The position numbers and the translations under genes are program-made. A model generated the notes under the pieces. That model saw only the letters and a program-made list of their open reading frames with translations, was not told the origin of the DNA and did no database searches. From a virus (lineage: Duplodnaviria > Heunggongvirae > Uroviricota > Caudoviricetes): a stretch of DNA of 12,082 nt. The DNA lies in IMG/VR virus record IMGVR_UViG_2737471840_000002, positions 1 through 12,082 of that record; one strand, 5' to 3'. Shown here piece by piece: positions 1-7,406 of this stretch; positions within the stretch are counted from its first letter, which is position 1, and each line of letters starts with the position of its first letter.

Positions 1-61
1 ATTGAGTGGGAATGATTAACAGCTAACTCATAGCAACTCATTCCTATTCAGATACTAATTT

Positions 62-94
62 AACCCTCTGTTTTTACAGAGGGTTTTTGTTTTT
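62..94 (+). terminator. Rho-independent terminator (10-bp stem 62-71/76-85, loop TTTT, then T-rich tract)
   Basis: Seen in sequence: aaccctctgt-tttt-acagagggtt followed by tttgttttt. Probably terminates an upstream + strand gene outside the window (possibly the integration target gene). Confidence 0.7.
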
Positions 95-140
95 ATGTAT
101 TCATTTCTATTCACTCTACACCATATTTTTCGGCGGTACA

Positions 141-180
141 GGTGACGGTATTACCTTAAAGGTATACTCTCATACCGTCA
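141..180 (+). promoter_or_regulatory. Integrase upstream control region: operator-like site TTACCTTAAAGGTAT (151-165), -10-like TATACT (163-168), nested inverted repeats TGACGGTA (144-151)/TACCGTCA (173-180) and GGTAT-N6-ATACC (161-176)
   Basis: Direct inspection; the palindromes are exact. The operator-like site matches the TTACC-N5-GGTAA motif found elsewhere in the window at 9 of 10 positions. Confidence 0.45.
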
Positions 181-207
181 TGAAAATGGTTTCTATACGG
201 GTGAATT

Positions 208-1464
208 GTGCTTACCGATACAAAATTAAAAAACCTCAAGCCGCAGGACAAACTGTACAAGGTCTCCGATCGTGACGGGCTGTATGTAGCTGTGCTTACG
301 TCAGGCACGGTCTCGTTTCGCTACGACTACCGTATCAACGGTCGCCGCGAAACGCTGGTAATCGGGCAGTATGGGCGTGACGGTATCAGCCTGGCAGAAG
401 CGCGAGAAGAACTGATTGCTGCAAAGAAGCTGCTTAAAGCAGGCCAGTCACCGGCTGCGGCTAAACGTGACGGTATCAAAAAGATTCGTGGTGCCGAGAC
501 GTTTGCGGTACATACCGACAGTTATATGAAACACGTCATCCTGGCTGACAGTACCCGCGCAATGAAACAGGCGGTGATCGACCGTGACATACTTCCGGTT
601 CTTGGCAATAAAATGATGGCTGAAATTACCACATCGATGGTTCGTGATTTGTGTGACCGGATTGTCGAACGCGGTGGCCGGGCAACAGCAGTGCAGGCCA
701 GGGAGATCATCAGCAGCGTATACCGTCATGCCAATGACCGTGGTCATGGTTTGTTTAATCCTGCGGCTGACATTAAACCTTCGTCTATCGCCATATTTAA
801 ACCACGAGAGCGAACACTGACACCAGAAGAAATTGGCCTGTTCTTCCGCACGCTGGATGCCATTGGTGCTATGGGCACTATGAAAATGGCTTTAAAGCTG
901 GTGCTTATCACTATGGTTCGTAAAGGCGAATTCACCAATGCAACGTGGGATGAAATAGATTTTAAAAAATGGACATGGACAATTCCTTCAGACCGCATGA
1001 AGGGAAGCCGGGCGCACGTTATTTACCTGCCTAAACAGGCACAGGATATATTGGTTGGGTTGCAGATGTGCGCTGGTGGAAGTGAATATCTGGTTCCTGG
1101 TCGTTACAATTTCCGGAAGCCATTATCTAATGCCGCGCTGAACTCTCTGATCGACAGAACGGTGAAAATAATAAATGAAGATGGTGAGCATATTCAGGAC
1201 TTCACCGTACACGATATGCGCCGTACAGCAAGTACGTTGTTGCATGAGGCTGGTTATCCTTCAGACTGGATTGAAAAGGCTCTGGCACATGAGCAGAAAG
1301 GTGTGCGCGCCGTATATAACAAAGCGGAATACGCCAGACAGCGCGCCTACATGTTGCAGCAGTGGGCCGATATGATTGATTCCTGGATTGACGGGGAGCA
1401 TACGGATCTGATTCCGTTCTCCCCGTCGAAGTTTGAGAAGTGGATGGAAGACAGTAATAAATAA
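208..1464 (+). CDS. int: Tyrosine-type site-specific integrase, P4-like (N-terminal DUF4102-type arm-binding domain)
   Basis: GTG start at 208. N-terminus LTDTKLKNLKP...DGLYVAV is typical of P4-family integrases; C-terminal catalytic region has HDMRRTASTLL (R, H) and LAHEQKGVRAVYNKAEY (catalytic Tyr context). 418 aa. Confidence 0.9.
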   Translation: MLTDTKLKNLKPQDKLYKVSDRDGLYVAVLTSGTVSFRYDYRINGRRETLVIGQYGRDGISLAEAREELIAAKKLLKAGQSPAAAKRDGIKKIRGAETFAVHTDSYMKHVILADSTRAMKQAVIDRDILPVLGNKMMAEITTSMVRDLCDRIVERGGRATAVQAREIISSVYRHANDRGHGLFNPAADIKPSSIAIFKPRERTLTPEEIGLFFRTLDAIGAMGTMKMALKLVLITMVRKGEFTNATWDEIDFKKWTWTIPSDRMKGSRAHVIYLPKQAQDILVGLQMCAGGSEYLVPGRYNFRKPLSNAALNSLIDRTVKIINEDGEHIQDFTVHDMRRTASTLLHEAGYPSDWIEKALAHEQKGVRAVYNKAEYARQRAYMLQQWADMIDSWIDGEHTDLIPFSPSKFEKWMEDSNK

Positions 1465-1466
1465 TT

Positions 1467-2126
1467 CTATCCTTCCTGGACTTTGGTAAGCGTCAGATTT
1501 CCGCAGAACACTGCGCCGGTGTCGATGTACATCTGGTTTGCATACACCAGTGGGTGATGTGCTGGCGTATGACCGAAGATGAACAAATCGGCACCGGTTA
1601 TCTCCGAGACAATACCGTCCTGCGCGTCGCTAACCCGTTCACGATTCCATATCACCATTTCTTCTGGTACTGGCTTATCGAATGCGTATTCGTTGTGCGG
1701 GTAGTCTGCGTGACAGATGACGACCTTCTTATTGCCGGTAACCAGTTCGATAATCATCGGGAGGTTGGTAATCTTTGGCAGAAGGTATTTGAGTTGCACA
1801 TCCTGCTCAGAATCAAGTTGGTGCCACCATCCACCGCCGTTTGACATCCAATGTCCGAAACTTCCGCCGTTGACCAGTGCATCCAGCATCATCTGCTCAT
1901 GGTTGCCACGAACAGCTCGGAACCACGGCATAGTAATCAAATCCAGGCATTCGACGTTTTCAGCGCCGCGGTCAACAAGGTCACCAACGGAAATAAGTAA
2001 ATCGCGCGCCGGGTCGAATGAAACTTTGTCGAGTTCGTTCATCAGCAGCGTGTAGCACCCATGCAGATCGCCGACGACGAAGATATTGCACCAGTCAGCG
2101 CCATTGATGCGTTGATATAGGTTCAT
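1467..2126 (-). CDS. Lambda-type Ser/Thr protein phosphatase (PPP-family metallophosphoesterase; PrpA/PrpB/NinI-like)
   Basis: Motifs GDLHG, GDLVDRG, GNHE in canonical order; strong recalled similarity to E. coli PrpA. Start assigned to internal ATG ([12 protein letters not shown]...) at 2126, forming an ATGA overlap with the upstream gene stop; the track ORF extends to 2246 but that would overlap the methylase gene. Confidence 0.88.
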
Positions 2127-2773
2127 GCTGCACGCTCCCGCCCCTGGTTGTCTATTGGTGACACCGGAGCATTGCTGAATGCATTTGTTAATCCGCCAAT
2201 ATCCAACGCGTATCCAGGGTGTAGTTGCACTGCCGGGTCTTCGCACTGATTACCCCAAACATCGAAGCCATGAGACGACTGGCGGGCGAACAGTTCAATG
2301 CGAGAAACATCGCCTAACAATTGCACAAGTTTTTCACGAACGACATCTGGTTTTCTTGAATGCTCAAGCCGCGGTGCGGTAAATGACTGAACGATCCCTG
2401 CATTAATGCGCGGAGGTAGTTTTCCCTTTACTGCAAACAGGCAATCTTCACTATTGGCGCGAGTCATGTGTCCCATACCCATAACCAGTTTATCTGGTTG
2501 TCGACTACCACATTTTATCCACGTGAAGCCCTTCATCGTCATCAGACGGAATCCCCAGGCTTCAACAACTTTTAGTGCTTCGAGTGGTTGTGTTGGCACC
2601 CACCACATGGCCAACAGACAGTTTTCATCGGCCAAATCCCACACAGGAAGGCGGCAGATATCCAGCACACTCATAACCGGATATTTAAAACCGGCACCGC
2701 GATTACCATCTGCGGCTTTGTCCCGGTATACCCAGGGTGGATCTGCATAGATTAGTGTGTATTTCTTAGTCAT
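2123..2773 (-). CDS. MT-A70 family DNA N6-adenine methyltransferase (orphan, no cognate restriction gene visible)
   Basis: N-terminal motif LIYADPPW (DPPW catalytic motif) right after start MTKKY; ATG at 2773 preceded by GGGGTGG SD-like sequence; track ORF starts 12 nt further upstream at GTG 2785. Confidence 0.8.
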
Positions 2774-3065
2774 AAACCACCCCACAACATCCTATGCCGC
2801 TATAGTCGCCACGGCGAAGGCCGTTACCGTTTGTGATACATTGGTCCCTGCGAACCGCGATCCTTGCACGCTCAACATCACCAGAAGCAACATCCATACA
2901 CTGAAGCCAAAGGTGGGCGGCAATGCGGAACTGCCCTTTTTTCTCTCTTTCAATCGCGCGTTTTTCGATCTCTATCGCCGCAGGAGTAACGGCAACAACC
3001 TTTGAAGGGCTGCGCATTGAAACCTTGTTCATGTGATATTTTTCAAGTCGGCTTAACTTTCTCAC
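2766..3065 (-). CDS. Hypothetical protein (99 aa from GTG 3065; alternative ATG starts at 3032 or 3017)
   Basis: ORF in same orientation as flanking operon genes, overlaps methylase start by 8 nt (coupling). No motif recognised. Start uncertain. Confidence 0.5.
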   Translation of the reverse strand: MRKLSRLEKYHMNKVSMRSPSKVVAVTPAAIEIEKRAIEREKKGQFRIAAHLWLQCMDVASGDVERARIAVRRDQCITNGNGLRRGDYSGIGCCGVVYD

Positions 3066-3149
3066 TTAATCCAACCCTCTCTGAAAATTAATGCCAGCAG
3101 ATAAAGCCATGCTGAAACAGAGGCCAGGAATAAGTACCATCCTGACCAT
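3066..3149 (-). CDS. Candidate 27-aa hydrophobic micro-ORF (MVRMVLIPGLCFSMALSAGINFQRGLD)
   Basis: Not in the ORF track (too short). ATG at 3149-3147 preceded by GGAG; stop abuts GTG 3065 of the next ORF; fills most of the 109-nt gap after the AlpA-like gene. Could be chance. Confidence 0.25.
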   Translation of the reverse strand: MVRMVLIPGLCFSMALSAGINFQRGLD

Positions 3150-3174
3150 TTGCTCCAGTGCCTTAGCAGCGCAC

Positions 3175-3423
3175 TCATGCAGCGTTGCTCACAGGACGAT
3201 ATACACGTTGCTGAACAGGAGGCTTTTTACCCTGGAACTCTGCCGGGCTTGCTGCCTGACGTTCATCAAGCCAACGCTCAACTTCATCACGGTTCCATGC
3301 GCAGCGTTTATCGGTGATATACCAGCGTTTAGGAAATTCCCCTGCGCGCTCCATACGGTCGATAGTGCTCCATGACAGTGGCACCACCGCCAGGAGTTCC
3401 TTCTTACCTAATGCACCTTTCAT
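3175..3423 (-). CDS. AlpA-family phage regulatory protein (excisionase-like HTH; Phage_AlpA/MerR-like fold)
   Basis: 82 aa; the segment KKELLAVVPLSWSTIDRMERAGEFPKRWYITDKRCAWNRDEVERWLDE matches the AlpA/Xis-type winged-helix pattern (conserved W after the HTH, EV..W). RBS AGAGAGG 6 nt upstream of ATG 3423. Confidence 0.75.
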   Translation of the reverse strand: MKGALGKKELLAVVPLSWSTIDRMERAGEFPKRWYITDKRCAWNRDEVERWLDERQAASPAEFQGKKPPVQQRVYRPVSNAA

Positions 3424-3444
3424 AAATACCTCTCTTGGTTGCAG

Positions 3445-3465
3445 TGCGGCGCGCGTGGCGCCGCG
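3445..3465 (-). other. GC-only stem-loop (7-bp stem gcggcgc / gcgccgc, 5-nt loop) in the recT-alpA intergenic spacer, no U-tract
   Basis: Seen in sequence between stop of 3473-4354 gene and start of 3175-3423 gene. Confidence 0.5.
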
Positions 3466-3472
3466 GTGGTGG

Positions 3473-4354
3473 TTACATAGATGTTTCGTTTAATTCTTCC
3501 CGACGAACGCTGTAAACGTCGGTGGCTTTTGCCAGCAGTTCGTCATCATCTGAAAGTTTTTGTGCAATGTATTTGTAAGCCTTATCCAGTTCGGAGACAG
3601 TGCTGTAATTCATCGCTGCGCTGGTAAAGGCCATCAGCATTTCTTCTGGATCACGGCTATCCGCTTTACGCGTTTGCTCATCAGGCTTTTTCGCTGGTTT
3701 AGCGTTGATCAGACTGTTCATTCCCGCAGCAGTGGTCGTTTGCGGAGTAATGTCTCGCTCAACGCGCGGTGCCGTTTCCTGTAATTCGTCAGGGGTGTAA
3801 ACACCGAGAAGTACATCAGGAGCGTGCAGGCGAGCCCATCGTTTCGTGCAAAGATAGGCAAGCTGCTGGCGCGGATCCTGTTCCCACAATGGAGAGTTAC
3901 GCACTCCGGCTTGCGCCATACTGATGGTAAGCTCACGGGGTTCTGCTTCTCCTTTAAGAACTGCTGACACAGTTACCGTCAGATTCGGTGATTTATCTGT
4001 TTTGCCGTTAACATTCGACCAGTCACCGCTCCAGCGATAATTCAGGCGTGTCGCTAGCAGGCTGGAAGAGGATACGACCGCGTTTACCAACTGTGCTTCG
4101 TAGCCTAACGTTCCGTTTACCACATGCGTTTTCTGCGCCACGGCGAAAGGATTCATTCCCCACTGTGCCGCCTGCATGGTCACCGCCAGACAATCGGCAG
4201 TTTTGCCTTCAAGATGTTTCGGTACAGTCGCTTTGCTTTGTGACATCAACTCCGCGAAACGCACCAGTTGATTCATGCCCTCCGGGCTGAAGATTGCCGC
4301 AGCAGTACCTACAGTTGCGCCTGGTTGTGATGTGATTGCGATATCATTGCTCAT
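3473..4354 (-). CDS. Putative phage single-strand annealing protein / recombinase (RecT/Bet-like)
   Basis: 293 aa; immediately downstream of and ATGA-coupled to a PD-(D/E)xK exonuclease, the classic exo+SSAP pairing. Family assignment is by context and loose recall, not by a confirmed motif. Confidence 0.55.
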   Translation of the reverse strand: MSNDIAITSQPGATVGTAAAIFSPEGMNQLVRFAELMSQSKATVPKHLEGKTADCLAVTMQAAQWGMNPFAVAQKTHVVNGTLGYEAQLVNAVVSSSSLLATRLNYRWSGDWSNVNGKTDKSPNLTVTVSAVLKGEAEPRELTISMAQAGVRNSPLWEQDPRQQLAYLCTKRWARLHAPDVLLGVYTPDELQETAPRVERDITPQTTTAAGMNSLINAKPAKKPDEQTRKADSRDPEEMLMAFTSAAMNYSTVSELDKAYKYIAQKLSDDDELLAKATDVYSVRREELNETSM

Positions 4355-5172
4355 ACGTACATATCCTGTTTACGTGCCCAGTCAGGGCGTTTAATAATTT
4401 CCACTCCGCCCCACTCATCGTTGATGCGGCATTCGTGATAGGTATTCAGATCCCGGCGGAACAGAGCGTGCCCGGCATCGACATCCGGCGCATCCAGCTC
4501 GAACACGCGTACCGGATACCGACCACAATCAATGCTTTCGCTCACGGCAAGAAAGAAAAAACCATGCGGCTGACCAGTAACCTTCATTGCGCCTTCGCGG
4601 TACATTGCGTCCTGCACGTGGTAGCGGAATTCCTCGATGTGGCGTGCAAAACGGTCCATATCTGCAACCTTTTTCACGTCGACGATCACGTTGTGCTCGT
4701 TCAGCCATTTGTCTGGACGAATGCGGCACAACTCACCAGTATCTTCATCGTTCCAGTACATTGATGCTTCGCAGTAACCAGGTGCTTCCAGCATCCAGCG
4801 TGCCGCCGGGTGAGCCATTGCGCTATCACGCATCAGCTCCAGTTTCCGCCACTGCTCGGCATCAAGTACCGTAATCCCCATATCCGCCACATCACGAAGA
4901 AATGCCTCTTCGTCAGCTTTACCTTGTTTCGTCCGACGATCGAATTTCGGTGAAACAATGAAGCGTTTGTCGAACTCTCCAGGCTCCAGAAGCAGACAGT
5001 GCAATGCAGTTCCCATATCCAGTGCAGACTTTTTCTCTTCGTCTTCTGGTGCTGCCTGAACCCATTTAAGAAGCGCCGGATTCTTGGCAACCATGTCTAG
5101 TTGCGACTTACTCACGCCGTCACCGGCGTGGTAGTCTTCGTTGCTGATGTCGAAATAAATTCCCGGTTTCAT
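4351..5172 (-). CDS. PD-(D/E)xK-superfamily nuclease (phage recombination exonuclease, RecE C-terminal domain/YqaJ-like)
   Basis: 273 aa; acidic/K motif region (…NVIVDVKKVADMD…), located in recombination module; ATGA overlaps on both sides. Confidence 0.6.
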   Translation of the reverse strand: MKPGIYFDISNEDYHAGDGVSKSQLDMVAKNPALLKWVQAAPEDEEKKSALDMGTALHCLLLEPGEFDKRFIVSPKFDRRTKQGKADEEAFLRDVADMGITVLDAEQWRKLELMRDSAMAHPAARWMLEAPGYCEASMYWNDEDTGELCRIRPDKWLNEHNVIVDVKKVADMDRFARHIEEFRYHVQDAMYREGAMKVTGQPHGFFFLAVSESIDCGRYPVRVFELDAPDVDAGHALFRRDLNTYHECRINDEWGGVEIIKRPDWARKQDMYV

Positions 5173-5475: not shown

Positions 5476-6510
5476 TCAATATTTGATATACGCGTCCTGC
5501 ACTTTGCCGCCAGCGATAGCCAACATTGCTTTCTGCGCGAATTCTTCGGGAATGCCTTGGGCTATCAGATCTGCGATTACTCTGCGGTTAACGGTACGGC
5601 GATGCTCTTTATCTGCAGCTCGGCGCGCTTCTTCGTCGGCGATACGCTTCTGTTCGTCAAGGCGGGCTTTTTCTGCCGCCTCTTGGCGTCGGCGTTCCTC
5701 GGCAACGGCTTCTTCTTTTTCGCGTCGTGCGCGCTGCTCTGCTTCAATTCGCTGACGTTCTGCTACTTCAGCACGTGCTTTTTCTTCCGCCGCCAGGCGT
5801 GCCGCAGCCTCAATTTCAGCTTTCGCTTTTTGTTCAGCTTCGAGCCTGGCCTGTTCAGCAGCTTCCCGGCGGATATTCTCTTCTCGCTCAATGCGCGCTT
5901 TTTCCTCCGCTTCTTTGCGAAGTCGCTCCAGCTCAGCGGCTTCATGCTCGCGTTTTTGAGCTACTGCGAGTGATTCTTCCAGTTTCTGGATGGTTGAATC
6001 CTTGGCTACTCCAGCTTCTGCTGCGTACTCCTGCCAACTTTCATCAAGTGCTACTGATTTAGCCTCTTGAATTCGTTCCTGAATATCAGATGATGGCAAG
6101 TAGTTTCCGGAGAGATCGATCACGTCAGCTAGTGCTCGCAAATTTGTCAGGCGTTGTTGCAGTGCTTCAGTGCGTAATTTCTCAGCATTTTCCCACTCGG
6201 TGAGTGGGCGGCGTACTTCATCACGAAGACGATCGCATTCGGTTACGAAGCGTCGTAACTCTGCTTCAACTACTTTCGGCTGTTCTTTCAGGCGTTTCAG
6301 ATAATCACGTCCTGGTTTTTCTACCGCTGTTTTACTTCTTGAAACCTTCGCAGCCAGAGATGCAATGCGCTTTCTGCCTTTGTCTGTGCTAATGTCAGGC
6401 ACTTCATTAACACCTTCACGGATCTGCTCGAGAAACTTTTCCAGCCCTTTTTCAACGTAAATTCTTGGTGCCATGTCTGGTGTGATTTCGATGATTGACA
6501 ATTCACTCAT
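5476..6510 (-). CDS. Hypothetical phage protein with long E/A/R/K-rich coiled-coil (low-complexity) segment
   Basis: 344 aa; residues about 185-300 are an (E-A-x-x-K/R-A-R)n-like charged helix; globular N- and C-terminal parts. Function not recognised. Confidence 0.7.
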   Translation of the reverse strand: MSELSIIEITPDMAPRIYVEKGLEKFLEQIREGVNEVPDISTDKGRKRIASLAAKVSRSKTAVEKPGRDYLKRLKEQPKVVEAELRRFVTECDRLRDEVRRPLTEWENAEKLRTEALQQRLTNLRALADVIDLSGNYLPSSDIQERIQEAKSVALDESWQEYAAEAGVAKDSTIQKLEESLAVAQKREHEAAELERLRKEAEEKARIEREENIRREAAEQARLEAEQKAKAEIEAAARLAAEEKARAEVAERQRIEAEQRARREKEEAVAEERRRQEAAEKARLDEQKRIADEEARRAADKEHRRTVNRRVIADLIAQGIPEEFAQKAMLAIAGGKVQDAYIKY

Positions 6511-6687: not shown

Positions 6688-6702
6688 TTACCGTTGAGGT
6701 AA
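6688..6702. promoter_or_regulatory. Operator-like palindrome TTACC-GTTGA-GGTAA (OL-proximal, overlapping pL -10/+1)
   Basis: Exact 5+5 inverted repeat with 5-bp spacer. Confidence 0.6.
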
Positions 6703-6730
6703 TAATTATGCGTATATGGTTTGATGTCAA
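6700..6730 (-). promoter_or_regulatory. pL-like promoter: -35 TTGACA (plus coords 6725-6730), AT-rich -10 (about 6702-6708)
   Basis: Consensus -35 hexamer on minus strand, 16-17 bp spacer to AATTAT/TAATTA; flanked by two operator palindromes. Confidence 0.5.
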
Positions 6731-6749
6731 TAGATATGAGTTAAAAAAA

Positions 6750-6764
6750 TTACCAGTTAGGTAA
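6750..6764. promoter_or_regulatory. Operator-like palindrome TTACC-AGTTA-GGTAA (OL-distal)
   Basis: Exact 5+5 inverted repeat with 5-bp spacer. Confidence 0.6.
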
Positions 6765-6776
6765 TCGAATAGGCAA

Positions 6777-6800
6777 TAAAAAAGCCGCCATAAGGCGGCT
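6777..6800 (-). terminator. Rho-independent terminator for repressor gene (stem agccgcc/ggcggct, loop, then 6 U on minus strand)
   Basis: Seen in sequence 22 nt downstream of repressor stop. Confidence 0.75.
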
Positions 6801-6821
6801 TACTTACTGAAAAATATGGTT

Positions 6822-7406
6822 TTATTGTTTGTTTTTTTCGTTCTGGTTGATGACAAATTCAATGTAACTTTCGATCTTTGCTTTCTCGGTTTCGGGTAAC
6901 AATGCGTAGCGCGAGCGATCATAGTTGATGGTCGCAGGGTCGTGCGGGTGAATCAGTAATTCATAGCCGTGACGCCCGAATGCGGATGCAACATTCTCCA
7001 GGGTGGAAATGGAAACGCTGACCTCATTGTTTAACAGGCGGCTGATTGTCACCTGGGCGACGCCGGATGCGCGGTGTAGTTTTCCCTGCGTTGAAAGGTC
7101 GCGGCTTTCGCTCATCCAGCGTTCCAGGTTGTGAGCCGCCAGCTGACCAATGTCGCTTGGGCCGACAGGCTGAAAACCTTCCTGAGAAAGCGAGCGATCG
7201 ATATCAAGCCAGTTACGTGGTTTATTGGCGGCAGCTTCAATTTTTCGCGCAACCTGGTCGCCGATAACCTTCTTGCCAAGAGCCCAGCGGTTTACCAGAT
7301 TTGCCTGAGTTCCAAGTTTTTCTGCCATCCGCGTCTGAACACCATTGAATTCACGGTCGATCAAGTCGTTGAGATTTTGCCTGCGGACGTCTTGGATACT
7401 TTTCAT
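6822..7406 (-). CDS. CI-like prophage repressor with two XRE-type helix-turn-helix domains and no LexA-like S24 peptidase domain
   Basis: 194 aa. HTH-1 about residues 20-60 (QTRMAEKLGTQANLVNRWALGKKVI), HTH-2 about residues 110-150 (ASGVAQVTISRLLNNEVSVSISTLENVA). Position and orientation equivalent to lambda cI (divergent from cro-like gene, followed by terminator and pL). No S24 motif visible. Confidence 0.65.
   Translation of the reverse strand: MKSIQDVRRQNLNDLIDREFNGVQTRMAEKLGTQANLVNRWALGKKVIGDQVARKIEAAANKPRNWLDIDRSLSQEGFQPVGPSDIGQLAAHNLERWMSESRDLSTQGKLHRASGVAQVTISRLLNNEVSVSISTLENVASAFGRHGYELLIHPHDPATINYDRSRYALLPETEKAKIESYIEFVINQNEKNKQ

Follow-up and report, generated by a model that had tools for sequence, protein, structure and literature searches.

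Do three overlapping genes next to the integrase gene of a temperate phage work together against the defences of the host, or are they separate accessory genes that share an operon? The window studied here, i.e. the whole stretch of 12,082 nucleotides of a Caudoviricetes genome (IMG/VR record IMGVR_UViG_2737471840_000002), contains such a cassette at positions 1467-3065. The original prediction had read it as a hypothetical protein, an orphan MT-A70 adenine methyltransferase and a Ser/Thr phosphatase that would act together as a host-takeover or counter-defence module. We favour another explanation and consider it likely that the integrase-proximal end of the operon consists of three accessory genes, which are co-transcribed and coupled, functionally independent and exchangeable, with the identities and roles proposed below. 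The features to which the argument refers are the following:

208 to 1464, plus strand: P4-type tyrosine integrase gene int (Pfam Arm-DNA-bind_3, Phage_int_M and Phage_integrase)
1467 to 2126, minus strand: NinI or lambda-PPase-type Ser/Thr (PPP-family) phosphatase, 219 aa (match to 1G5B, PHROG 246, Pfam Metallophos)
2123 to 2773, minus strand: orphan MT-A70-family (class beta) N6-adenine methyltransferase, 216 aa (PF05063, PADLOC MTase_II)
2766 to 3065, minus strand: PerC-family small all-alpha protein, 99 aa, GTG start (PF06069, PHROG 868, RefSeq)
3062 to 3178, minus strand: predicted membrane protein, 38 aa (PHROG 17484 'membrane protein', E 2.6e-27; annotated in phiV10 as p35 and in PAS61)
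3175 to 3423, minus strand: AlpA-family regulator, excisionase-like, 82 aa (PF05930, E 3e-5; PHROG 66 'excisionase and transcriptional regulator', E 2e-16)
6702 to 6801, minus strand: terminator-like hairpin (6801-6782) and sigma-70-like promoter (6730-6702, TTGACA-17-AATTAT), both from a consensus scan only
6822 to 7406, minus strand: repressor gene, upstream of the hairpin

The remaining ORFs of the window include RecT, a PD-(D/E)XK exonuclease that belongs to the recombination module, replication genes, DUF1064 and Ea22. The cassette matches annotated E. coli chromosomes near guaA with 99.5% DNA identity and the phage PAS61 with 98.7%, and the segment is found in 645 complete E. coli records; in E. 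coli, guaA lies immediately upstream of int. Judged from its sequence, the element is a phiV10/epsilon15-like (Uetakevirus) temperate prophage integrated at guaA in E. coli. The three genes are already known, since they are named in RefSeq and in PAS61, and the PerC-like and methylase genes are named in phiV10 as well. Hence, the cassette is an ordinary one, made of known accessory genes that were annotated before.

All three ORFs lie on the minus strand at the coordinates listed, the 8-nt and ATGA overlaps noticed in the original prediction are visible in the sequence, and the Pfam matches mark all of them as real genes. The TAA of the 99-aa ORF (2768-2766) and the ATG of the methylase (2773-2771) share ATGACTAA, which makes the 8-nt overlap, and the TGA of the methylase (2125-2123) together with the ATG of the phosphatase (2126-2124) gives the ATGA overlap. 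However, the chain of overlaps does not end at the 99-aa gene. It continues with the 38-aa ORF, which overlaps the PerC-like gene on one side (GTGA) and, on the other (ATGA), the AlpA-like gene, with which the chain begins. This 38-aa membrane ORF had been overlooked at first reading. Altogether, six of the nine junctions in the leftward operon overlap, and the coupling therefore does not mark out the trio of PerC-like protein, methylase and phosphatase.

The phosphatase gene is the last one of the leftward operon, and the position next to int at the distal end of the early-left operon was thus recognized properly; it must be corrected that int is located on the opposite strand and is convergent, with the two stop codons 2 nt apart. 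A consensus scan of the minus strand found no promoter- or terminator-like site within 1467-3500; on these grounds, a separate transcription unit for the cassette was rejected. The leftward early operon that ends in the cassette probably starts at 6702-6801, where the functions of the hairpin and the promoter are predicted from the consensus; the phiV10 annotation has a terminator at the place equivalent to the hairpin.

The 99-aa product is not a hypothetical protein, as it had been called, but belongs to the PerC family. It matches PF06069 over residues 35-79 with E 1.7e-6 and 28.6 bits, the cut-off being 22.6, and PHROG 868 'transcriptional activator' with E 2.5e-61, and it is named 'PerC family transcriptional regulator' in RefSeq; the ANR family gives a sub-threshold match. 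Its GTG start is supported by the overlap with the stop codon of the 38-aa ORF and by the first 16 residues, which are conserved in homologs starting with ATG. The AlphaFold2 (AF2) model consists of four helices with a mean pLDDT of 74 and has the shape of a TPR/MIT-like bundle; a Foldseek search against the PDB gave no significant match for it (E >= 0.77). The reported effects of PerC-family proteins differ and comprise activation, no effect and repression (PMC11773190).

The assignment of the second gene to MT-A70 and of the third to the PPP family was correct, as judged by Pfam and homology. The methylase matches PF05063 with E 7e-22 and 78.6 bits against a gathering score of 23.9, carries the catalytic motif IV, DPPW, at residues 11-14 and is recovered by the generic PADLOC model MTase_II with E 6e-77. 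Its start at ATG 2773 is the one used in RefSeq and PAS61. Tetrahymena MT-A70 proteins and METTL3 are the nearest solved structures. Among phage enzymes, gp05 of the Stx2a phage PA28 is 83% identical over residues 1-187 and the HK639 methylase 45%. When matches of more distant relatives are included, the methylase occurs in 642 of 5426 complete E. coli genomes, i.e. in about one tenth. The proposed orphan status stands: no restriction enzyme was found among the ORFs of the window, nor does the annotation of the complete genome of PAS61, a phage that shares this cassette, list one. Whereas a type II restriction-modification system has an endonuclease beside the methylase, the neighbours are here the PerC-like gene and the phosphatase gene.

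Along its whole length, the phosphatase is orthologous to lambda NinI (lambda-PPase), and its catalytic residues are intact. The alignment with the lambda phosphatase 1G5B is full-length, collinear and gap-free over 217 residues (E 9e-100), and PHROG 246 'NinI-like' (E 9e-108) and Pfam Metallophos (E 1.4e-15) agree with it. Identity amounts to 66.8% with lambda NinI, 79.5% with HK225 NinI and 100% with the PAS61 protein. The PPP signature motifs GDxHG, GDxVDRG and GNHE are present together with the downstream His ligands, and all nine lambda residues D20, H22, D49, R53, N75, H76, H139, R162 and H186 are identical at the same positions. Scores against the NCBIfam equivalogs PrpA and PrpB stay below their cut-offs. 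The ORF list places the start further out, at GTG 2246; ATG 2126 is the start in RefSeq and PAS61, from which the alignment with lambda-PPase is collinear from residue 1.

An intact active site in the phosphatase, an orphan methylase and co-transcribed, overlapping genes are in line with the proposed counter-defence or host-takeover module, in which the methylase would act against restriction and the phosphatase against kinase-based abortive infection, with the 99-aa protein as a helper. Moreover, accessory and anti-defence genes are typically located at the end of an early operon that lies next to int, which also fits such a module. However, the genes vary independently of each other. Among 80 phage contigs with a methylase at least 97% identical, the ATGA-coupled slot 3' of the methylase contains DUF1382 in 43 cases, the phosphatase in 32 and an 82-aa gene together with an AntA antirepressor in five. 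Nearly isogenic natural pairs with either the phosphatase or DUF1382 in the slot exist. The homology between these alleles stops directly after ATGAA and resumes within the last codons of int, so that the exchangeable slot is bounded on its right-hand side by the last approximately seven codons of int, where also the homology to phiV10 resumes. Of the 645 matching E. coli records, only 144 have the phosphatase. NinI-type phosphatase genes are found mostly in nin regions without a neighbouring methylase, the homologs of lambda, HK225 and phi80 adjoin ninE, ninH or ninG, unlike the gene here, and the Klebsiella phage BUCT711 carries its phosphatase in the rightward operon. The first two genes can be separated as well. 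Between PerC and methylase, the Tyrion, epsilon15-type, Klebsiella and Kosakonia relatives have one to three further genes (DUF1317, NinX, DUF1382 or a wHTH gene), and in the Kosakonia locus L090 a Dam-family methylase (PF05869) takes the place of the MT-A70 enzyme with the PerC-like gene still present.

This comparison shows the three genes as separately exchangeable passengers and not as a dedicated three-part machine. The step from coupling to joint action thus loses its ground, because most genes of the operon overlap and the trio varies independently among the relatives. The suggestion that the phosphatase counters kinase-based defences fares no better. PADLOC gave no defence-component match for the phosphatase or the PerC-like protein, published and genomic evidence for NinI-type phosphatases opposing kinase-based defences was sought and none was found, and lambda can do without ninI in the laboratory (PMC10695390). 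What the literature search returned was unrelated, namely a Macro-domain ADPR-1P phosphatase, a mycobacteriophage nuclease-like metallophosphoesterase, the Pf kinase-phosphatase module and lambda-PPase as a reagent. Taking both sides together, we regard one joint module as quite improbable.

The anti-restriction or epigenetic role proposed for the methylase stands in part. Serratia phage BZS1 p32, an MT-A70 protein 75% identical to the HK639 methylase, is GATC-specific, and both BZS1 p32 and the Tn1549 enzyme are active GATC methylases without a partner (PMC7556043). Overproduction of M.EcoGV leads to GATC methylation, as far as this work is cited in PMC10810198. Together with the Dam-family enzyme of the Kosakonia relative, these GATC activities make a role in DNA methylation plausible, and from BZS1 p32, M.EcoGV and the Dam replacement we infer a putative GATC specificity. 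A Dam+ E. coli host would have little need for a further GATC methylase. The frequency of GATC in the window, with observed to expected ratios of 0.71 in a trinucleotide and 0.89 in a dinucleotide model, indicates neither clear avoidance nor enrichment. However, the closest characterised homolog points also in another direction. In the Stx2a phage phiPA8, PNB-2, encoded by the gene directly upstream, binds the 83%-identical methylase 1:1 and gives it a preference for 16S rRNA, whereas M.EcoPA8orf6770P alone was only weakly active on DNA in vitro and showed no specific activity of significance (PMC10810198). Hence, anti-restriction is not the sole candidate role.

These findings raise the possibility that the methylase alone is silent or non-specific, a drifting remnant of a pair of genes, the other of which the Uetakevirus lineage has lost. 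PNB-2-like partners beside MT-A70 genes in both the 83%-identity clade and a Klebsiella clade of approximately 43% identity suggest an ancestral pairing, and neither PNB-2 nor its relatives gave a tblastn match in the window, which together with the inactivity of the lone phiPA8 enzyme would fit such a loss. Nevertheless, we consider the remnant unlikely: the gene is intact including DPPW and is kept at 97-100% identity in hundreds of genomes and viable phages, the BZS1 and Tn1549 enzymes work without a partner, and the Dam-family substitution in L090 implies that the methylase function itself is the trait that is kept.

Alternatively, the PerC-like protein could replace PNB-2 as the targeting subunit of a two-subunit methyltransferase, which would act on rRNA or another RNA and tune prophage induction. 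The precedent of phiPA8, where the subunit is encoded directly upstream, and the retention of the 8-nt overlap between PerC-like gene and methylase in 77 of the 80 near-identical loci speak for it, as do the distinct C-terminal tail of the methylase and the predicted helical TPR/MIT-like bundle, a shape usual for interaction modules. However, only the related catalytic subunit is present here, and PNB-2 is missing from the place directly upstream. That the 99-aa protein is itself a PNB-2 homolog was rejected, because BLASTP produced no alignment, tblastn with PNB-2-like proteins gave no match in the window, and AF2 predicts a bundle made entirely of helices and not a winged HTH. The C-terminal LYIDEFENAL motif of the PNB-2 relatives is absent from it, overlaps are generic in this operon, and the fold matches are not significant. 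Furthermore, relatives with the same methylase tail have one to three genes between PerC and methylase, and the PerC-like gene is kept where the Dam-family enzyme replaces MT-A70. The tail also does not co-vary with the kind of gene that precedes the methylase: in Tyrion, the methylase has the tail seen here yet a wHTH gene directly upstream, the epsilon15-type methylase is truncated yet accompanied by a PerC-like protein, and the Klebsiella methylases have a different tail again plus a PNB-2-like partner. We therefore regard the two-subunit RNA methyltransferase as very improbable. The more specific idea that the PerC-family protein of phiV10-type phages binds the methylase tail and redirects the enzyme to a particular target, RNA or DNA, would be a long shot indeed. 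If true, PerC-family proteins would be methyltransferase specificity subunits and not classical transcription factors.

Hence, we return to three independent accessory genes as the preferred explanation. The PerC-like protein, methylase and phosphatase would be non-essential, coupled in translation as elsewhere in the operon, and functionally independent. By its family, the PerC-like protein may modulate host or phage transcription, most likely via protein-protein contacts and not by a classical HTH. The methylase, a member of the prokaryotic MT-A70 clade that acts without the PNB-2 partner directing its Stx2a-phage relative, would most likely be Dam-like (GATC-type) on phage and host DNA after induction or infection, by which replicating phage DNA could be shielded from restriction of unmethylated sites and/or methylation-dependent processes could be altered. 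Cassette exchange probably brought the phosphatase into the polymorphic slot between the 3' ends of methylase and int; the NinI-type enzyme, presumably Mn-dependent, would strip phosphate from host phosphoproteins in lytic growth. The sequence data show what the genes encode, that the catalytic motifs are intact, that the genes overlap and where they stand in the operon, that a restriction partner and PNB-2 are missing and that the three vary independently; what the methylase, the phosphatase and the PerC-like protein act on is our inference.

The cassette as found matters little, and the question of the substrate of lambda-type phosphatases receives no special handle from it. What the locus does illustrate clearly is the exchange of cassettes at an ATGA junction that stays fixed. 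In Stx2a phages, the 83%-identical methylase governs spontaneous induction and toxin release through its partner protein, which makes the target of a partner-less version present in about one tenth of the E. coli genomes worth knowing.

The regions of phiV10 and vB_EcoP_PAS61 are among the closest known systems, with 98-99% DNA identity. In phiV10, p32-p36 show the same order of AlpA, 38-aa membrane ORF, PerC-like gene, methylase, terminal slot and convergent int, but the slot is occupied by DUF1382 without a phosphatase, whereas PAS61 carries the phosphatase allele found here with a 100% identical protein. Lambda NinI has the same length and shares all metal-binding and catalytic residues with this phosphatase; its gene is, in contrast, part of the nin region in the rightward operon, between the replication genes and Q, and not at the end of a leftward operon abutting int.

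The PerC/Pch proteins (EPEC PerC, EHEC PchA-E and EcCIMP1_025 of a PICI) are likewise small, helical and above the PF06069 threshold, and the sub-threshold ANR match parallels that reported for EcCIMP1_025 (PMC11773190). Gram-negative PICIs and prophages also carry a PerC-family gene beside int and alpA on a mobile element. The subfamily found here is distinct from PerC/Pch and is confined to phages of the Uetakevirus type from Enterobacteriaceae (36 phage records, 130 protein clusters). M.EcoPA8orf6770P with PNB-2 (Gong, Chakraborty and Koudelka, NAR 2023) and M.EcoGV of E. coli O104:H4 are MT-A70 enzymes with DPPW as well. The Stx2a-phage gene lies near int and 3' of a small overlapping gene, as it does here, and DUF1382 comes next in PA28 and phiV10. 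However, the upstream gene encodes PNB-2 there and a PerC-family protein without similarity to PNB-2 here, and the C-terminal 29 residues of the methylases are unrelated. Finally, the beta2 MT-A70 enzymes BZS1 p32, Tn1549 and HK639 gp35 resemble the methylase in family, size, phage-borne and orphan state and near-integrase location (PMC7556043), but their identity to it is distant and their specificity is not confidently transferable.

The window covers the left part of a podovirus of the genus Uetakevirus, temperate and similar to phiV10 and epsilon15, carried as a prophage in E. coli and inserted directly downstream of guaA. Its segment 1400-3500 is present in 645 complete E. coli records, with 99.5% identity to annotated E. 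coli chromosomes and 98.7% to the isolated phage vB_EcoP_PAS61, and is matched by phiV10 apart from one gene. Related prophages of Klebsiella and Kosakonia also adjoin the GMP synthase gene (L003, L090 and L093; window 1-207), and the attachment site has thus been kept from one genus to another. The terminator of guaA is probably the hairpin at 62-85. The genes considered here are as follows, the minus-strand genes in order of transcription:

3175-3423, minus strand, AlpA-like regulator/excisionase
3062-3178, minus strand, 38-aa membrane ORF
2766-3065, minus strand, 99-aa PerC-family protein
2123-2773, minus strand, 216-aa methyltransferase
1467-2126, minus strand, 219-aa phosphatase, last gene
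208-1464, plus strand, integrase (int), convergent with the others

All genes of the three-gene cassette at 1467-3065 are genuine and already annotated in RefSeq and in phage records, an isolated phage has the identical cassette, and its exact proteins belong to database clusters of 368, 2905 and 893 members.

The 8-nt overlap ATGACTAA between the 99-aa gene and the methylase gene and the ATGA overlap between the methylase and phosphatase genes are both seen in the sequence. The chain of overlaps reaches beyond the cassette, upstream as far as the AlpA-like gene, and overlapping junctions account for 6 of the 9 in the whole leftward operon; hence, translational coupling characterises the operon in general rather than the trio. 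In consensus scans, a terminator-like hairpin and a good sigma-70-like promoter (6730-6702) come after the repressor gene (6822-7406), and no promoter- or terminator-like site was found on the minus strand within 1467-3500. Together with the phiV10 annotation, this makes the distal end of the early-left operon a fair description of the cassette position. The stop codons of int and the phosphatase gene are 2 nt apart, and the leftward operon faces the int 3' end head-on, with no terminator-like hairpin (window 208-1467). Early-left transcription is therefore expected to run on through int as antisense RNA, which may control integrase expression.

The place downstream of the methylase gene was surveyed in 80 IMG/VR contigs encoding a methylase at least 97% identical (L006-L085, 3640-4910; window 1462-2130), where it holds one of three alleles:

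DUF1382 gene, 43 of 80 contigs, one frameshifted
phosphatase gene, 32 of 80 contigs, two disrupted
82-aa gene followed by an AntA antirepressor gene, 5 of 80 contigs

The sequence common to the three alleles ends at ...GCAGCATGAA and diverges immediately beyond; the left junction is exactly the shared ATGAA. When the window is compared with phiV10, homology returns within the last ~7 codons of int, so that the alleles encode different integrase C-termini. The pattern is that of a classic cassette exchange, with conserved sequence on either side. Among the 645 matching E. coli records, the phosphatase is covered in 144.

Regarding the phosphatase itself, a Pfam Metallophos match (E 1.4e-15) is accompanied by a gap-free alignment over 217 residues with the lambda protein phosphatase (PDB 1G5B, E 9e-100), identities of 66.8% to lambda NinI, 78.5% to phi80 Ppp and 79.5% to HK225 NinI, and conservation of D20, H22, D49, R53, N75, H76, H139, R162 and H186. 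These features identify it as an intact ortholog of NinI. Lambdoid phages have ninI in the nin region, within the rightward operon, whereas here the phosphatase gene closes the leftward one. The Klebsiella Uetakevirus BUCT711 encodes a 67%-identical NinI-type phosphatase (L096 1592-2254) in its rightward operon, just ahead of the replication gene, at a place corresponding to the DnaT/O-like gene region of the window, and its MT-A70 gene remains in the leftward operon. Hence, the phosphatase changes arms within the genus. In the laboratory, phage lambda can do without ninI (PMC10695390). The proposed activity against kinase-based defences found no backing, as literature searches gave no link of NinI-type enzymes to defence or counter-defence; PADLOC likewise has no model matching the phosphatase.

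The 99-aa protein, previously called hypothetical, belongs to the PerC family (Pfam, 28.6 bits, cut-off 22.6). Its GTG start is supported, because it lies in a GTGA overlap with the 38-aa ORF stop and the first 16 residues are kept in ATG-started homologs of Salmonella, Citrobacter and Klebsiella. The subfamily (36 phage records and 130 protein clusters), with all members at least about 50-60% identical, is limited to Enterobacteriaceae phages and prophages of the Uetakevirus type. The AlphaFold model consists of four helices (mean pLDDT 74, residues 30-80 at 80-90) with a weak, non-significant resemblance to TPR/MIT-type bundles, and contains no winged HTH. The match to the ANR (AraC negative regulator) family reached 23.3 bits, below the cut-off of 32; the same PerC/ANR ambiguity was reported for the PerC-like LEE repressor of the PICI EcCIMP1 (PMC11773190). 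In PICIs and prophages of Gram-negative bacteria, PerC-family genes are frequently carried next to int and alpA, and their measured effects on LEE1 comprise activation, none or repression (PMC11773190).

A joint action of the three genes as a coordinated counter-defence module, as suggested in the original prediction, is not supported by the comparison with relatives. The slot content varies, the phosphatase relocates in BUCT711, and the PerC-like and methylase genes are separable. They are adjacent only in the phiV10 type; between them lie DUF1317 and a wHTH gene in Tyrion, a DUF1317 remnant in the epsilon15 type, and DUF1317 with or without NinX or DUF1382 in Klebsiella and Kosakonia prophages. 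The PerC-like gene is also still present where Dam stands in for MT-A70. In a 102-aa database protein, P0154, the PerC-like sequence (46% of the query, at 98% identity) is fused to a DUF1382 domain, probably as a result of a deletion that took out the methylase gene and brought the genes on either side together.

Further variation was observed elsewhere in the window. A 344-aa protein (5476-6510, minus strand), with a long, probably coiled-coil central region rich in Glu, Ala, Arg and Lys, matched nothing in Pfam or PADLOC; it is missing from phiV10 and PAS61, where short ORFs take its place, and is found in E. coli H1 and Kosakonia relatives. RecT and a PD-(D/E)XK exonuclease are encoded by two overlapping genes (window 3473-5172), at whose place phiV10 is annotated with one 586-aa RecE-RecT fusion (L002 4604-6364) and PAS61 has a shortened RecT.

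The methylase is a member of the MT-A70 family (Pfam, E 7e-22) with DPPW at residues 11-14, and among solved structures it comes closest to ciliate MT-A70 proteins and METTL3. Both enzymes of the cassette had been identified correctly. As no restriction enzyme is present in the window or annotated in the complete PAS61 genome, the term orphan is also correct. In a Kosakonia prophage at guaA that is otherwise syntenic, a Dam-family methylase (L090 5819-6373; PF05869, E 3e-58) replaces MT-A70, and this non-orthologous replacement argues that DNA adenine methylation is the function kept there. The ~1.35 kb upstream of this Dam-family gene is free of called genes. The HK639 enzyme is 45% identical to the window methylase and 75% identical to p32 of Serratia phage BZS1, which like the Tn1549 enzyme was shown to be a plain, GATC-specific DNA methylase (PMC7556043). 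A role in DNA methylation or anti-restriction is thus plausible but unproven.

The relative that tells most is the Stx2a-phage methylase PA28 gp05 (M.EcoPA8orf6770P type), which is 83% identical over residues 1-187 and has an unrelated C-terminal tail. By itself it has little specific activity; PNB-2, encoded directly upstream, binds it 1:1, and this pair favours 16S rRNA and increases spontaneous induction (Gong, Chakraborty and Koudelka, PMC10810198). The near-identical M.EcoGV, as cited there, methylated GATC in vivo upon overproduction. That the PerC-like protein acts as the corresponding physical partner appears very improbable to us: it has no similarity to PNB-2 or its relatives, the window encodes no PNB-2, and the presence of the PerC-like gene is tracked neither by adjacency nor by the methylase tail. 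PNB-2 and its longer relatives (P14437 ORF08, a Klebsiella 142-aa 'regulator') have a common C-terminal LYIDEFENAL-type motif, and these proteins occur with MT-A70 genes in the 83% identity clade as well as in the one at roughly 43%. Carriers of the GLYIDEFENAL-like motif lie at L004 3316-3504, L005 3148-3504 and L089 2073-2501, the longer ones being wHTH proteins upstream of MT-A70 (P14437, Klebsiella phage). The shared motif suggests that distant phages have kept a tail for docking to the methylase.

Overall, the observation behind the original prediction is confirmed and its interpretation partly supported. The locus represents known biology of modest interest, and what it usefully adds is a defined exchange slot and a contrast to the Stx2a enzyme, which depends on a partner.
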